Shown: piece by piece, positions 411 through 5,787 of the stretch | Position numbering within the stretch: the first letter of the stretch is position 1 | Layout: every line of letters starts with the position of its first letter | From: a virus | DNA length: 10,507 bases | Virus genome (UHGV): UHGV-1707683 | Reading direction: 5' to 3' (one strand) | Program-made: the position numbers and the translations under genes | Notes under the pieces: generated by a model | Database searches by the model: none | What the model saw: the letters and a program-made list of their open reading frames with translations, nothing else | What the model was told of the DNA's origin: nothing

Positions 411-549
411 GACCTTTCTCCTTCTGCATCAGCTTCACTTTTTCCAACTCAGCCCGGAATCGACCAGGCTGCTTGAAGCTGGACAGGAAGCGATCACGTA
501 GTATGTGTTTGTGAATTTTGTCCTGGTAAGGACTGAGTTGTTTTGTCAT
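403..549 (-). CDS. Hypothetical small protein (48 aa) between cII and O, overlapping the O start by 8 nt
   Basis: ATG at 549..547 preceded on the minus strand by AGGAG with a 5-nt spacer; translation [48 protein letters not shown]; TAA stop at 405..403 overlaps the O start codon. Not in the supplied track (under its length cut-off). No family recognised. Confidence 0.4.
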
Positions 550-581
550 AATGACTCCTGTGGATTGATCCAGTAATTCCC

Positions 582-878
582 TCAGAATTGCATATCAATT
601 TGCTTAAAATCCTCGGTGGCGGCCGGGGATTTTTTCTTTGTGATTTCATCAAGCGCATACTTAAAAGCCCTGCTAATCGGACTGATGTCTGATGCCATTC
701 CGAAAGCACACAGAACCGAAGCAATAAATCTCCAGTCCGTCCTGCTTATCTTCGATTCATGACAGCCAATCATCTTTGCCAGACCGCGCTGGGTAATAGT
801 TGACAGGTTGATGAGTAAATCTGTTTCTGCGCGATCAACGTCACGCTGTGATAGTTTGCTGTAACTTGTTTGTTCCAT
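582..878 (-). CDS. cII: CII-like transcriptional activator
   Basis: 98-aa ORF whose C-terminus ([20 protein letters not shown]) and central helix-turn-helix segment (SKISRTDW) match my recollection of lambda CII (TNKKRPAATERSEQIQMEF; KSQISRWKRDW). Gene order cro-cII-O is conserved. Confidence 0.75.
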
Positions 879-963
879 TTCTTAAGATTTCCAATAGTGA
901 ATAGTTAGTTGAAAGGTATGCGTGGAAACGCATATGGCCTTAGTTGGTCAGATATATTGGGAC

Positions 964-983
964 TCGCTTTGTCAGCGACGTAG
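964..983 (-). promoter_or_regulatory. nutR-like site: boxB-type RNA hairpin (minus-strand RNA CUACG-UCGCU-GACAA-AGCGA) between cro and cII
   Basis: Plus strand 964..978 is TCGCT TTGTC AGCGA; on the cro/cII transcript this is a 5-bp stem with a 5-nt loop GACAA preceded by CTACG. It is almost identical to the hairpin upstream of N (4519..4538). The location matches lambda nutR. Confidence 0.55.
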
Positions 984-1016
984 GACGAATGTCCATTGTG
1001 AAAATAGCGGTGTTAC

Positions 1017-1250
1017 TTATGCAGCCGATGCTCTACGCGATACGAACACTAGGTTTTCCTTTTTCACAGGTTTATAACCCGTGAAATTACGAGTAGCTTC
1101 TTCGATTGCATTCGCTTTATCAGGGGAAGCTCTTCGAAATCCATATGCAATCTGGTCAAGATAGCCAACTGAAGTTTTCGCTAATGCGGCGAGTCGCTTC
1201 CATTCCTCACTAGAAGCCTCTTTTCGCCAGCGTAGTAGTTCATTACTCAT
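1017..1250 (-). CDS. cro: Cro-position HTH regulator, YdaS/Cro-like family
   Basis: 77-aa ORF divergent from cI. ATG at 1250..1248 preceded on the minus strand by GGAGG (plus 1256..1260 CCTCC). The segment ASPDKANAIEEATRNFTGY resembles the conserved core of YdaS-type Cro-like proteins of E. coli cryptic prophages as I recall them. The symbol is given by position and function, not by similarity to lambda Cro. Confidence 0.6.
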   Translation of the reverse strand: MSNELLRWRKEASSEEWKRLAALAKTSVGYLDQIAYGFRRASPDKANAIEEATRNFTGYKPVKKENLVFVSRRASAA

Positions 1251-1363
1251 TAGTGCCTCCGTTTATCACACAGAACAACTTTACCATTTTGATAAATCAT
1301 CCGCAATGTAAATTTATCATATTGCGTATTTATCCATTTGCTAAATAGAGGGAAAATTGTGAG
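1251..1363. promoter_or_regulatory. Right operator/promoter region (OR with divergent PR and PRM) between cro and cI
   Basis: 113-bp AT-rich divergent intergenic region containing repeated 17-bp dyads of the form TTTATC-N5-GATAAA: 1262..1278 (TTTATC acaca GAACAA), 1280..1296 (TTTACC atttt GATAAA), half-site 1313..1318, 1329..1345 (TTTATC cattt GCTAAA). The same motif recurs at OL (4412..4453). Confidence 0.6.
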
Positions 1364-2068
1364 ATGGAAAACAAAGATATTCGCAAATCGAATCTGGCGT
1401 TTTTGCTAGATGAGCATAAAAAAATCGCGGGTAACACTAATGCAAGCTTTGCCGATAAGCTTGGGGTTAGCCCTTCTCAACTCACGCAAGTCTCCGGTGA
1501 AAAAAGCACTCGAAACATAGGGGATAAACTAGCAAGAAAATTTGAAGCCGCGCTTGGGTTACCTAATGGGTGGCTTGATTTGGTACATGATGTAACACCA
1601 ATTGCATCATGCTCAGATTCTTTAACTTTTGTCGGTCAGGTAAGAAAAGGGTTAGTGCGCGTGGTTGGTGAGGCAATTCTTGGTGTTGATGGTGCCATCG
1701 AGATGACCGAAGAGCGCGATGGTTGGCTCAAAATTTATAGCGATGATCCAGATGCCTTTGGTCTTCGTGTGAAAGGAGACAGCATGTGGCCCAGAATAAA
1801 ATCAGGAGAATATGTACTCATTGAGCCTAACACCAAAGTATTCCCGGGTGATGAGGTGTTTGTCAGAACCGTTGAAGGACACAACATGATTAAGGTTCTT
1901 GGCTATGACAGAGATGGAGAATACCAATTTACAAGCATTAACCAGGATCACAGGCCTATAACGTTGCCTTATCATCAAGTAGCAAAGGTGGAGTATGTAG
2001 CTGGTATTCTGAAGCAATCTCGCCATCTGGATGACATCGAGGCAAGGGAGTGGCTGAAAAGTTCGTGA
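1364..2068 (+). CDS. cI: CI-type prophage repressor (N-terminal HTH, C-terminal LexA-like S24 autopeptidase domain)
   Basis: 234 aa. N-terminal HTH (ASFADKLGVSPSQLTQVSGEKS); C-terminal domain with the Ser-Lys dyad context VKGDSMWPRIKSGEYVLIEP ... GHNMIKVLGY typical of LexA/CI family. Divergent from the cro-like gene across an operator-bearing spacer. Confidence 0.85.
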   Translation: MENKDIRKSNLAFLLDEHKKIAGNTNASFADKLGVSPSQLTQVSGEKSTRNIGDKLARKFEAALGLPNGWLDLVHDVTPIASCSDSLTFVGQVRKGLVRVVGEAILGVDGAIEMTEERDGWLKIYSDDPDAFGLRVKGDSMWPRIKSGEYVLIEPNTKVFPGDEVFVRTVEGHNMIKVLGYDRDGEYQFTSINQDHRPITLPYHQVAKVEYVAGILKQSRHLDDIEAREWLKSS

Positions 2069-2128
2069 CTTCATCGTCACATAGCTGGTAACCAGTGGCC
2101 AGAAGAAACGTTTGGGTGAGGAGGATAG

Positions 2129-2470
2129 ATGGCGTTCACTGACCTTGAATATCAAGCGGTCAAAAAAGAAGTTCACCAATTCATTGAAAGCATAAGGCCG
2201 CCTGAACATATCCGCAATGAACTGGATATTGTTTATAGCATCAATGACCAAACGATAGATATCGGCGAACAGCGCCCCGTGTGGCAGGGCAACCCAGGTG
2301 AAACAAACATCCTGCCATCAGCAAGAATCAAGTACATACGTTCTCTGGATAGATGGAAAATCTATTGGATGCGGAAGGATATGAAATGGCATCAGTACAG
2401 TACTGAACTTTCGCTGACTGATGCGCTTGAGCTTGTGCGTGCTGACCCGGATTGCTGCTTCTTCGGATGA
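2129..2470 (+). CDS. Hypothetical protein (113 aa), first gene downstream of cI; possibly a DUF3024-like small protein
   Basis: ATG at 2129 preceded by GAGGAGG. Contains WKIYWMRKDMKWHQY, which I tentatively recall as characteristic of an uncharacterised ~110-aa bacterial family; this is unverified. Confidence 0.5.
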   Translation: MAFTDLEYQAVKKEVHQFIESIRPPEHIRNELDIVYSINDQTIDIGEQRPVWQGNPGETNILPSARIKYIRSLDRWKIYWMRKDMKWHQYSTELSLTDALELVRADPDCCFFG

Positions 2471-2537
2471 GTGAAGAGACGTTTGGATGATGGATGGTCG
2501 CAGAGATGCGGCCTGATTCTAAAATAGGATATAAAAA

Positions 2538-2999
2538 ATGAGAATACTAGGTGTTAGAGCGGCGCCCAAAGTTACATCTTTTGTTGTATATTGCACTAAT
2601 GAGTCTGCACTCAAATGTGTTGATGTTATTAAAATACCTTCGACCTTAGACACACCAGAAAAATTAAAGTATGTGAGAAATAACATCCTCGACATTCTTA
2701 ATTTATATAATGTTGAATTAGCTGCCATACGCGTTACTGAATCAAACTCTGATAATCTTAGCATTGACCGCCTTTATATAGAAGCTGTTATTCAAGAAGC
2801 ATTTTCAAGCAGTGATGTAAGAAAATATTACACTATTAGAAAATCTGGCATGAAATCATCATTGAACCTAACAGAGATCGAGTATAAAGAAATATTGAAG
2901 TCACACCGCAATATAAATGGAATCGATAATTCTGGTTTTACAACTGAAACAAATGAAGCTGTTTTGGCTGCTCTATCTGCGGAGGTAAGGGGATGCTAA
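2538..2999 (+). CDS. Hypothetical protein (153 aa), AT-rich, translationally coupled to the downstream kinase
   Basis: ATG at 2538 with AGGAT upstream; the stop TAA 2997..2999 overlaps the kinase start ATG 2993..2995 (7-nt overlap). Asn/Ser/Lys/Ile-rich; no motif recognised. Confidence 0.55.
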   Translation: MRILGVRAAPKVTSFVVYCTNESALKCVDVIKIPSTLDTPEKLKYVRNNILDILNLYNVELAAIRVTESNSDNLSIDRLYIEAVIQEAFSSSDVRKYYTIRKSGMKSSLNLTEIEYKEILKSHRNINGIDNSGFTTETNEAVLAALSAEVRGC

Positions 3000-4039
3000 C
3001 TCCATACAAAAGAGCTGATGTAGAATTCGAATGGATTAGTGATCTAGAAGAACAGGGTTGTTTTTCAAAAGTATATCTGGCTCATGACAGACACCTAGCT
3101 CATGACTTGGTGATTAAAGAAATAGAAAAAAAAGAAAACACTAACCACGACGACTACTTTAATGAAGCAAGGCTTCTCTATAAACATGCACATCCAAATA
3201 TTGTGCAAGTTCAGTATGCTGCTCAATGTGAGAGCAATATCTATATAGCCATGCCATTTTATCATAATGGTTCGCTAAACCAATTAATGAAAAAAAATAA
3301 TCTTACAAGCAGGGAGATAATACGGTATTCCATTCAATTTTTAAGTGGACTTTATCATATACACTCAAAAGGTCTTATGCATTTTGATATAAAACCTAAT
3401 AACATTATGATATCAAACAGAAATGAGGCCATGCTATCTGACTTTGGATTATCTCAGTTAGTCAATGAGGAATCGAGAGCTGCGCCTGAGTTTGGATATC
3501 ATTTTCATGTGCCACCGGAATATTTTTCTTTATCAACAAATGATTATAATTTCACATATGACATATATCAGGCAGGATTAACCATATATAGAATGTGTGT
3601 TGGACATGATAATTTTGAAAGAGAAAGATCTGCATTTAGCACGATTGAACAACTCAGAGAGTCGATAATTAATGGCTGCTATCCATTAAAAGAGTATCCT
3701 CCCCATATACATAAAAAATTAATAACAATAGTGAACAAATGCATTCATGTAGATCCAAATGAAAGATATCAATCCGTACTAGATGTACTAAACGATCTCT
3801 CAGCTATAAGTGATGGCGTTCTTGACTGGCGTCTACAGATGACGAAACCAACTAACGGCACATGCGAATGGCAAAAAAAGTCTGGGGACGCTATACTGTC
3901 TATAGTTTTTGACGCAGAAAATTCGTCTACTACTGGTTTTCGTTTATACGATGATGGGCGGAAAAGGCGTGCTACGAACTTAACAATATCCTCAGGATGT
4001 ACCCCTACAAAACTGTATAGGTTATTAAAGGATAACTGA
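2993..4039 (+). CDS. Eukaryotic-like (Hanks-type) protein kinase, 348 aa, non-RD type with C-terminal extension
   Basis: GGAGG at 2981..2985 then ATG 2993. Kinase subdomain motifs read from the translation: beta-3 Lys in LVIKEI (about K42), alpha-C Glu in YFNEARLL, catalytic loop HFDIKPNNIM (D132, nt about 3380..3409), DFG in LSDFGLS (nt about 3440..3448), APE-like PPEY, subdomain IX DIYQAGLTIY. Glycine loop is degenerate (EQGCFSKVY). About 85 residues follow the catalytic core. Position and family are reminiscent of Stk of phage 933W (from memory, unverified). Confidence 0.85.
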   Translation: MLTPYKRADVEFEWISDLEEQGCFSKVYLAHDRHLAHDLVIKEIEKKENTNHDDYFNEARLLYKHAHPNIVQVQYAAQCESNIYIAMPFYHNGSLNQLMKKNNLTSREIIRYSIQFLSGLYHIHSKGLMHFDIKPNNIMISNRNEAMLSDFGLSQLVNEESRAAPEFGYHFHVPPEYFSLSTNDYNFTYDIYQAGLTIYRMCVGHDNFERERSAFSTIEQLRESIINGCYPLKEYPPHIHKKLITIVNKCIHVDPNERYQSVLDVLNDLSAISDGVLDWRLQMTKPTNGTCEWQKKSGDAILSIVFDAENSSTTGFRLYDDGRKRRATNLTISSGCTPTKLYRLLKDN

Positions 4040-4041
4040 TC

Positions 4042-4206
4042 ATGAAAAAGCGCGAGGAAGTAAGCAAGCTGCCTCGCAGACGTGATGCAGCATTAGCGGT
4101 TCCCTACAAAAAAGATGAGTTCATAAGCCCTTCTGATGACAAAAAATTTTCAAAGGCGAAAAGTTTTACATCTACATCTCTAAAAGATAAATACTTTAAA
4201 ATCTAG
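4042..4206 (+). CDS. Hypothetical small Lys-rich protein (54 aa) between kinase and terminator
   Basis: ATG 4042 two nt after the kinase stop; translation MKKREEVSKLPRRRDAALAVPYKKDEFISPSDDKKFSKAKSFTSTSLKDKYFKI; TAG stop at 4204..4206 abuts the terminator stem. Weak SD (AAGGA about 10 nt upstream). Not in the supplied track (under its length cut-off). Confidence 0.35.
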   Translation: MKKREEVSKLPRRRDAALAVPYKKDEFISPSDDKKFSKAKSFTSTSLKDKYFKI

Positions 4207-4230
4207 CCCGGCCTCAGCGCCGGGTTTTCT
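4206..4230 (+). terminator. Rho-independent terminator ending the cI-kinase (lysogenic) operon
   Basis: Stem CCCGGC (4207..4212) / GCCGGG (4219..4224), 6-nt loop, followed by TTTTCTTT (4225 onward). Confidence 0.7.
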
Positions 4231-4404
4231 TTGCCTCACGATCCCCCACCTAAAAAAACATAACTCATTGTATTTGTTGAAAAATAAATAGATACAACTT
4301 GCTAAACAACGCAATCCAGATCTCCCTCAAATCTCTTTATTTATCCTGTCGAATTCCTACAACAAAATAAAACACCATAAGAATCAATACGATATTTGAA
4401 AACG

Positions 4405-4460
4405 AAGAGAATTTATCATTTTGCTATTGCCATTAATTTATCATTCCGATAAAGTTCACC
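4405..4460. promoter_or_regulatory. Left operator/promoter region (OL/PL)
   Basis: Perfect 17-bp dyad TTTATC attcc GATAAA at 4437..4453 and a related site with TTTATC at 4412..4417, 25 bp apart. The motif is the same as in OR. A possible promoter lies on it: -35 TTGCCA 4427..4432 and -10 TAAAGT 4450..4455 (17-bp spacer). Lies upstream of nutL and N. Confidence 0.55.
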
Positions 4461-4518
4461 CATCAGCAGGACGCATTACTCACCAGGGCGGTGAATATAC
4501 AACGATTCGAATATGAAT

Positions 4519-4538
4519 CTACGGCGCTGACAAAGCGC
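4519..4538 (+). promoter_or_regulatory. nutL-like site: boxB-type RNA hairpin CUACG-GCGCU-GACAA-AGCGC upstream of N
   Basis: 5-bp stem GCGCT (4524..4528) / AGCGC (4534..4538), 5-nt loop GACAA, preceded by CTACG. It is near-identical to the minus-strand hairpin at 964..983, with a compensatory change in the outer base pair (G-C versus U-A). Geometry resembles lambda boxB (5-bp stem, GAAAA loop). Confidence 0.6.
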
Positions 4539-4703
4539 AATAACCAAAGTGAACTTTGGGGTGTGGTGAATGGTTCATGGACGGGAATATGTCGCACGTA
4601 AAGCGGCGAGGCCTGTGGGACTATTGCCGAATTGAAGTAGGCCGAAACAGGTCGAAATGGGTCTCCCACCTACCACACCACCAAAGTTCATCAGGAGGTC
4701 TAT

Positions 4704-5087
4704 ATGACACGCAGAACTCAGTTCAAAGGCAATTCACGTTCTCGTCGTCGTGAGCGTTTAAAGGCAAAGGCATTAGCTAACTGCGTACTGGCCCGCGAAG
4801 AAGCAATAAGTTCAGAAGTATTACACCGCCCTACTCTAAGCAGAGCGCAGATTCAGGCTAAAGGTACTCACGAAACGCCTGAGCGCATAGAAGACGCTAA
4901 GCCAATTAAGTTCATGGCACAGGACGTGATCTGGCAACAGAAAGAATACAGACGCAATCTGGAGCGAGCAGCCATTGTGTACGCGAATGAGTTTGGACAT
5001 AAGCAACCAGAAACTGGTGTATGTCTTCCAAACGTAGCCATTTACGCGGCAGGCTACCGGAAATCAAAACAACTGACGGCGAGGTGA
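4704..5087 (+). CDS. N: N-type transcription antitermination protein
   Basis: 127 aa; AGGAGG at 4693..4698 then ATG 4704. N-terminal arginine-rich motif (RRTQFKGNSRSRRRERLKAKALA) typical of lambdoid N proteins; first gene after OL/PL and the nut hairpin. The sequence looks to me like the N of Stx phages 933W/H-19B (recollection, unverified). Confidence 0.8.
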   Translation: MTRRTQFKGNSRSRRRERLKAKALANCVLAREEAISSEVLHRPTLSRAQIQAKGTHETPERIEDAKPIKFMAQDVIWQQKEYRRNLERAAIVYANEFGHKQPETGVCLPNVAIYAAGYRKSKQLTAR

Positions 5088-5148
5088 CTTGTGTTGGTCG
5101 CCAGAAAATGAGATTAGGCAGCAAACCACTTATTTGAGAGGAATTAAT

Positions 5149-5772
5149 ATGTCATCAATCCGCTTAACTACGAGAATGAAAGAGGAAATCGCTCGTAACG
5201 CTTTAATTAAGTCTGGGGTTTTCACTGAACTTGAAGAAGTAACAAAGTTAAAGAACCAGCTTGCACTTGACGCCAGAGTTATTGCGTTTGGCGGGAAAAA
5301 GAAAACCGAAGAAGTGGACCAGCTGGCATCAAAGTTAATGGCTGCAAGTGAGGAACTTCAAAAGCTGGGATGTTCATTTTACTCATGCGATGTCAGTTCA
5401 TGTTCGATTTATCTGACTGTATCTGGAAGAAGGGTTGGCTGGCATTCATACGGAAAAGACGGCAACGGTGAAGATATATTGCTCCCTACCCCCGACAAAG
5501 ATAAATGCATGTTTGACGCAGAACACAAAATAACAAAAAGGTTTGATGAAATCTGCGCATTGCAACAAAAACTTGAAGCCAGGAAAAAGGATATAGAATC
5601 AAACGTATGGGCTGCTTTGAACTCAGTCACAACAGTTAAGCGACTTATTGAAGTTTGGCCTGAAAGCAAAGAGTTGCTACCAAAAGAAGCAGATAAAGCA
5701 AGTGCAGCACTTCCTGCTTTACGGGTAGAAGATTTGAATAAGATGATTGGACTTCCTTCCGAGGCCGCATAA
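5149..5772 (+). CDS. Hypothetical protein (207 aa from ATG 5149; alternative TTG start at 5089)
   Basis: ATG 5149 preceded by GAGAGG; the track's longer ORF needs a TTG start one nt after the N stop. Predicted helical/coiled-coil-like segments; no catalytic motif recognised. Confidence 0.55.
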   Translation: MSSIRLTTRMKEEIARNALIKSGVFTELEEVTKLKNQLALDARVIAFGGKKKTEEVDQLASKLMAASEELQKLGCSFYSCDVSSCSIYLTVSGRRVGWHSYGKDGNGEDILLPTPDKDKCMFDAEHKITKRFDEICALQQKLEARKKDIESNVWAALNSVTTVKRLIEVWPESKELLPKEADKASAALPALRVEDLNKMIGLPSEAA

Positions 5773-5787
5773 TCGGCCTTTATTTTT
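5762..5787 (+). terminator. Rho-independent terminator (tL1-like) with the stop codon of the preceding gene in its loop
   Basis: Stem AGGCCG (5762..5767) / CGGCCT (5774..5779), loop CATAAT containing TAA 5770..5772, then TTTATTTTT. Confidence 0.65.

Follow-up and report, generated by a model that had tools for sequence, protein, structure and literature searches.

How far does the resemblance of this prophage to Stx2 phage 933W extend into its immunity region, and which protein would read the repeated dyads found there on both sides of the repressor gene? We addressed these questions in the window, i.e. the whole analysed stretch of 10,507 nt, which carries the early region of a lambdoid prophage with its + strand running in lambda's leftward direction. 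An earlier note had proposed that a family of 17-bp dyads, TTTATC-N5-GATAAA, is shared by OR and OL and sets the immunity specificity of the phage. Sequence comparison supports this proposal, as both the sites and the N-terminal domain of the repressor match those of phages with H-19B immunity. We consider it very probable (roughly 90%) that the dyads are H-19B-type operators recognised by a dimer of the 234-aa cI repressor.

Gene order and mosaic backbone

The genes and the terminator framing the two control regions are listed below.

582..878, - strand: cII (open reading frame and Pfam match)
1017..1250, - strand: cro-like gene, 77 aa (open reading frame; annotated as cro in BP-4795 and ST2-8624)
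1364..2068, + strand: cI repressor gene, 234 aa (open reading frame; Peptidase_S24 match)
2129..4206: DUF3024 gene, RuvC-like gene, stk kinase gene and a small ORF (open reading frames)
4205..4226, + strand: intrinsic terminator at the end of the cI-stk immunity transcript, upstream of OL, corresponding to 933W 'tM'
4704..5087: N (open reading frame and Pfam match)

The product of the cro-like gene matched a PHROG 'transcriptional repressor' family, and a Pfam search with it returned no match. The divergent cI and cro genes flank OR, which occupies the 113-bp spacer between them, and OL lies beyond cI and upstream of N, in the A/T-rich spacer that separates the terminator from N. Related dyads overlap PL as well as the putative PR and PRM, an arrangement typical of a lambdoid switch.

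The backbone is ~96–99% identical to phage 933W, with the match interrupted at 1027..1614 (cro, OR and the N-terminal part of cI) and across the OL spacer. We had initially assumed 933W immunity, given that stk, N and the cI C-terminus matched, and ruled it out because the match stops at 1027..1614 and at OL. Neither mark of the 933W immunity type, its 15-bp operators or its repressor N-terminal domain, has a counterpart here, no similarity to 933W being found over 1027..1614 or OL. These two segments are instead 100% and 97.6% identical, respectively, to the Stx phages BP-4795, ST2-8624 and Stx2a_WGPS9; for the Stx1 phage H-19B the corresponding values are 99.7% and 97.6% (module identities taken over window 1000..1640). 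The repressor DNA-binding domain and Cro are (near-)identical to those of H-19B, and the operators at OR and OL are the same. Judged from these alignments, the window carries an H-19B immunity module in a 933W-like setting, of the same immunity type as H-19B, BP-4795, ST2-8624 and Stx2a_WGPS9.

Phage 933W (Tyler et al. 2004; Koudelka et al. 2004; Bullwinkle et al. 2012, PMC3317979) is like the window in cII, the cI C-terminal domain, the stk cassette, nutL and N, whereas its operators are 15-bp dyads of unrelated sequence, e.g. CGTACTTTCAGTACG, three at OR and two at OL. Conversely, the window differs from H-19B and ST2-8624 in the cargo between cI and OL, where it carries the 933W cassette of DUF3024, RuvC-like, stk and small-ORF genes; the distance from the cI ATG to OL1 is 3073 bp, compared with 2422–2423 bp in those two phages. 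One base also differs in the OL3-OL2 spacer. The repressor and the OL1 dyad occur together across at least 25 cI-to-OL1 distances, ranging from 1327 to 3073 bp, that of the window being the longest; this linkage speaks for the operator reading.

As a mosaic, the region consists of H-19B-type sequence at 1027..1614 and ~4270..4460 within an otherwise 933W-like 542..5138, the 933W-like parts comprising DUF3024 and the RuvC-like gene in addition to cII, the cI C-terminal domain, stk, nutL and N. Within cI, the linker between the two domains holds the left recombination joint. Of 5,426 complete E. coli genomes, 29 contained precisely this mosaic, stk cassette included, whereas no phage-collection record contained it at a coverage of at least 80%.

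Operator sites and promoters

GenBank record GQ499358, the immunity region of ST2-8624 described as 'similar to bacteriophage H19-B', annotates seven repressor binding sites, OR0, OR1, OR2, OR3, OL1, OL2 and OL3. All seven recur unchanged in the window, and H-19B itself also has the three OL sites in identical form. They are listed here, unstranded, with mismatches counted against TTTATC-N5-GATAAA.

1262..1278: OR0, an extra fourth operator with the GQ499358 OR0 sequence; TTTATCACACAGAACAA, 2 of 12 mismatches
1280..1296: OR1 of GQ499358; TTTACCATTTTGATAAA, 1 mismatch; in the PR spacer, overlapping the -10
1305..1329: OR2 zone; GenBank register 1305..1321, AATGTAAATTTATCATA; dyad register 1313..1329, TTTATCATATTGCGTAT
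1329..1345: OR3 of GQ499358; TTTATCCATTTGCTAAA, 1 mismatch; overlapping the putative PRM -35 and spacer
4380..4396: OL3 of GQ499358, degenerate; AGAATCAATACGATATT, 5 of 12 mismatches
4412..4428: OL2 of GQ499358; TTTATCATTTTGCTATT, 3 mismatches; 2-bp overlap with the PL -35
4437..4453: OL1 of GQ499358; TTTATCATTCCGATAAA, a perfect dyad; in the PL spacer, overlapping the -10

The five dyads of the earlier note, with 2, 1, 1, 0 and 3 mismatches, all lie where it had placed them and coincide exactly with OR0, OR1, OR3, OL1 and OL2 of GQ499358, the perfect copy at OL among them. Its 25-bp spacing at OL was recovered from centre to centre, and a pattern search returned its half-site as an isolated TTTATC at 1313..1318. 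The count of three dyads plus a half-site at OR stands, but the annotation resolves OR into four sites, so that the cro-proximal dyad is OR0 rather than OR1 and the half-site falls within an added OR2 (1305..1321). Likewise, OL does hold fewer sites than OR, three against four, but OL3, which GQ499358 also adds, had been overlooked.

H-19B (Shi & Friedman 2001, Mol Microbiol 41:585; GQ499358) is therefore alike in its cro-OR-cI N-terminal module (99.7–100%) and in its four OR and three OL sites. One sentence of a review (PMC8065619, citing Shi & Friedman 2001) also gives H-19B four OR operators, and 933W the three and two mentioned above. That the repressor binds these sites is taken from the GenBank annotation and that review sentence. 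The dyads would be the operators of an already characterised immunity type, and as operators they add nothing new. The 2001 study by Shi and Friedman reportedly includes footprinting or binding data and functional data for H-19B.

The promoters to which the sites were related are the following.

4427..4455, + strand: PL, directed toward N; -35 TTGCCA (4427..4432), 17-bp spacer, -10 TAAAGT (4450..4455); from a promoter scan
1278..1306, - strand: putative PR; -35 TTGCGG (1306..1301), 17-bp spacer, -10 TAAAGT (1283..1278); from alignment with PL
1352..1357, + strand: candidate PRM -10, GAAAAT; from conservation

The scan predicted PL exactly over OL1 and OL2, and relative to this promoter OL1 is centred at about -17, OL2 at about -42 and OL3 at about -74. 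The putative PR scores below the threshold of the scanner; OR1 has the same geometry there as OL1 at PL, and OR0 would be centred near the PR start. On the plus strand of OR, no promoter exceeded the scanner threshold, and we favour a PRM with a weak -35, TTTATC, at 1329..1334 and a -10, GA(A/G)AAT, at 1352..1357, whose transcript would begin at the A of the cI ATG or close to it.

The minus-strand candidate that the scanner preferred in OR, TTAGCA-17-TATGAT (1344..1316), was rejected as PR, its -10 being absent at the equivalent place in the diverged relatives described below and the candidate having no parallel with PL. This candidate is made up of operator half-sites upstream of the putative PR, and may be either spurious or a second promoter.

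Natural variation and diverged relatives

About 50 IMG/VR loci with the same repressor N-terminal domain yielded 20 OR and 18 OL haplotypes. Variable columns accounted for 8 of 83 half-site positions and 31 of 85 other positions (Fisher p = 4e-5, indicative only, as the haplotypes are related by descent and the value overstates their independence). OR1, OR3 and OL2 are essentially invariant: the half-sites of OR1 do not vary across the 20 haplotypes, OR3 is nearly invariant, and OL2 is invariant in all 18 and identical in one diverged relative (L057). In OL1 only the N5 centre varies, and in OL3 only this centre and position 2 among the 18 haplotypes, which supports OL3 as a real, though degenerate, site. 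Invariant half-sites also lie outside the promoter hexamers while neighbouring bases vary, for example both OR3 halves and the left halves of OL2 and OR0. Among promoter elements, GA(A/G)AAT is kept in all haplotypes. A matrix of the 14 half-sites (T10/T11/T11/A12/T10/C14) has an invariant C6 and a nearly invariant A4, and the centres are A/T-rich (29 of 35 N5 positions).

Loci that share the repressor differ in the right half of OR0 (1275..1277; GAACAA, GAATAA, GAGCAA or GAGCGA) and agree in its left half. This right half, like OL3, matches the consensus weakly. OR0 may function essentially as a half-site, or phage lineages may differ in its strength.

Four further IMG/VR loci, L056-L059, served as diverged relatives, their repressor N-terminal domains being 54–65% identical to that of the window. 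They carry dyads of the type TTTAGC-N5-GCTAAA, at the same positions at OR and also at OL, where three dyads have centre spacings of 25 and 33 bp. These loci share with the window the layout OR1, OR2 (in the 1313 register), OR3 and OL1-OL3, together with a Cro of 78% identity, and an OR0 equivalent is absent from them. They differ in the putative cI recognition helix (SASQFSQLL, against SPSQLTQVS in the window) and in having G instead of T at half-site position 5 of the strongest sites. Their site at the OR3 position reads TTTATCG(A/T)ATTGCTAAA, and their counterpart of OL3, 33 bp from their OL2, reads TAAATCATT(C/A)TGCTAAA. They also carry a PR equivalent, TTGATT-17-TAAACT, and, at the place of the PRM -10, TGtGAGAAT.

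The four loci (~3900..4000 and the OL regions, e.g. 7200..7274 in L057) represent a sister immunity type. The Cro HTH stretch LAALAKTSVGYLDQIAYGFRR is identical in the window phage and these TTTAGC-type relatives, and partial cross-recognition by Cro or cI between the two types seems possible.

Register of OR2

The best-surviving alternative to the annotated layout concerns OR2. In this reading the fourth OR site is 1313..1329 (TTTATC-ATATT-GCGTAT) instead of the GenBank 1305..1321, giving OR centre spacings of 18, 33 and 16 bp in place of lambda-like steps of ~24 bp; the site would lie 33 bp from OR1 and share one base pair with OR3. The shifted register differs from the consensus at 4 of 12 positions, the annotated one at 8 of 12. 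In the relatives the site TTTAGCATTTTGCATAT occupies this very register, the centre-to-centre spacings being 33 and 16 bp, and nothing is present at the annotated one. The common variants (ATATT/AAAAT) lie in the N5 centre if the 1313 register is used, and at half-site positions 5, 7 and 16 in the annotated register. In addition, a PRM start at the cI ATG (1364) would centre the 1313 register at -43, the activating position of lambda OR2.

Against this, GQ499358 places OR2 at 1305..1321, possibly on the basis of footprints, and that register reproduces the 25-bp O1-O2 step as well as the -42 position of OL2 at PL. The whole-region conservation test hardly separates the two (p = 4e-5 versus 2e-4). 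A second record, KU238070, gives OR2 as 1308..1324, so that the annotations disagree with one another. Taken on their own, sequence and conservation favour 1313..1329; with the annotation weighed in, we place this register at slightly less than even odds.

The oR1-oR3 coordinates of KU238070 (1282..1298, 1308..1324 and 1331..1347) were left unused, as they are shifted by 2–3 bp from the symmetric register.

The repressor as the protein that recognises the dyads

The cI protein is a natural hybrid, its residues 81–234 being 95% identical to 933W cI and its N-terminal domain only 36% in the alignment. The C-terminal part contains an S24 peptidase domain (E = 3.8e-16). Pfam detected no HTH in the N-terminal domain, in line with a published remark that one clade of Stx-phage CI proteins 'lacks' an HTH by Pfam. 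The same domain matches PHROG transcriptional-regulator families and, weakly, the sequence of a solved phage CI N-terminal domain in the PDB. A single-sequence structure model contains five helices at low confidence (mean pLDDT 60), and the best matches of a fold search with this low-confidence model were all HTH domains of the XRE/Cro-C1 type, at E-values of 0.25 or worse. Given the PHROG matches, the helix pattern and the weak fold matches (cI residues 1–85, 1364..1618), the 'missing HTH' may simply reflect the detection threshold, and a divergent HTH of the XRE type is the most likely identity of the domain.

The lack of a Pfam HTH nevertheless lends something to the alternative that the dyads serve chiefly as binding sites for Cro, or for another regulator, with cI recognising something else. 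The Cro HTH stretch common to both immunity types also suits this alternative, as it fits a reading by Cro of the common core TTTA-C / G-TAAA. The substitution of T by G at half-site position 5 of the strongest sites, however, tracks the putative cI recognition helix and not Cro, and GQ499358 names the sites repressor binding sites. Moreover, the operators of lambdoid phages are common to cI and Cro. We regard recognition mainly by Cro or by another regulator as very unlikely, and recognition by the cI dimer remains the preferred reading.

Chance similarity and base composition

Both control regions are 67–71% A+T, and the repeats might in principle be chance similarities or promoter-related A/T-rich elements of such intergenic DNA. 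At up to 3 mismatches the window holds 14 matches against 7.95 ± 2.98 expected, an unremarkable count that lies within chance, and GATAAA overlaps the -10 TAAAGT at both promoters, so that part of the conservation could be promoter constraint. At up to 2 mismatches, by contrast, only five 17-mers occur in the 10,507 bp, four of them within two control regions of ~100 bp, and three such matches did not occur in any of 20,000 shuffles that kept the composition of the 113-bp cro-cI spacer. For OL, 1% of shuffles contained two matches at up to 3 mismatches. These statistics are partly circular because the consensus was derived from the same sites, and the independent evidence for the dyads is comparative. 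Half-sites off the promoter hexamers are invariant beside variable neighbours, the relatives alter the dyad coordinately at OR and OL, and GenBank labels the dyads repressor binding sites, and we consider chance or composition the least probable explanation, slighter still than recognition by Cro.

The fifth match at up to 2 mismatches (5779..5795), the only one elsewhere in the window, speaks on the side of chance; it overlaps the T-run of an intrinsic terminator (5761..5780) and was rejected as an operator. The hairpin of this terminator lies downstream of a 227-aa ORF, and a second terminator is found at 5907..5924.

Proposed action of the switch and comparison with lambda

In the mechanism that we propose, a cI dimer, with an N-terminal HTH and a self-cleaving C-terminal S24 domain, would recognise the 17-bp TTTATC-N5-GATAAA sites. 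OL1 would be bound between the -35 and -10 of PL and OL2 over the -35, a placement by which bound repressor would block transcription of N. OR1 would act in PR as OL1 does in PL, with OR0 covering the region of the PR start. The sites toward cI, OR2 and OR3, would probably first stimulate PRM and then shut it off, and conservation suggests that OR3, over the PRM -35, would mediate autorepression. Cro presumably uses the same sites. The sites fit the repressor N-terminal domain and bear no relation to the 15-bp operators of 933W; the phage would therefore have a separate immunity specificity despite its 933W-like C-terminal domain and neighbouring genes.

The general plan is that of lambda, in which cI and cro also diverge around OR, the operators are 17-bp partially symmetric sites, and OL lies upstream of N. 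As in lambda, O1 and O2 overlap the early promoter, the cI-proximal site overlaps the maintenance promoter, and the O1-O2 step is 24–25 bp. The window differs in operator sequence, in the extra OR0 over the PR start and in a C-terminal domain that is probably non-cooperative, and its OR2-OR3 spacing may be unusual. The shared C-terminal domain reportedly makes the 933W repressor bind non-cooperatively, and 'presumably' that of H-19B too (PMC3202840). With such a domain, occupancy may follow the intrinsic strength of each site.

A wider and tentative proposal, which as a whole we hold to be possible but rather doubtful, is that the annotated OR2 is off by 8 bp, that the real site is 1313..1329, and that the 33/16-bp layout is conserved in the wider repressor family that includes the TTTAGC-type relatives. 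With the reportedly non-cooperative 933W-type C-terminal domain, activation and shut-off of PRM would then be set by two abutting sites of different intrinsic strength and not by lambda-style cooperativity. Between the two immunity types, recognition by cI would differ (half-site position 5 being T or G), with the recognition helix of Cro unchanged.

The switch governs prophage induction and therefore Shiga toxin release in Stx phages of the H-19B immunity type. That the immunity is of the H-19B and not the 933W type predicts which superinfecting phages would be excluded and which repressor is in control. The remaining value of the locus lies in the true register of OR2 and in the use of four OR sites by a probably non-cooperative repressor.

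The cI linker and C-terminal stretch GEAILGVDG (residues ~104-108; 1433..1438 region of the window) contains a Leu-Gly dipeptide and is identical to that of 933W cI. The 933W repressor is said to cleave itself at Leu-Gly instead of the usual Ala-Gly.
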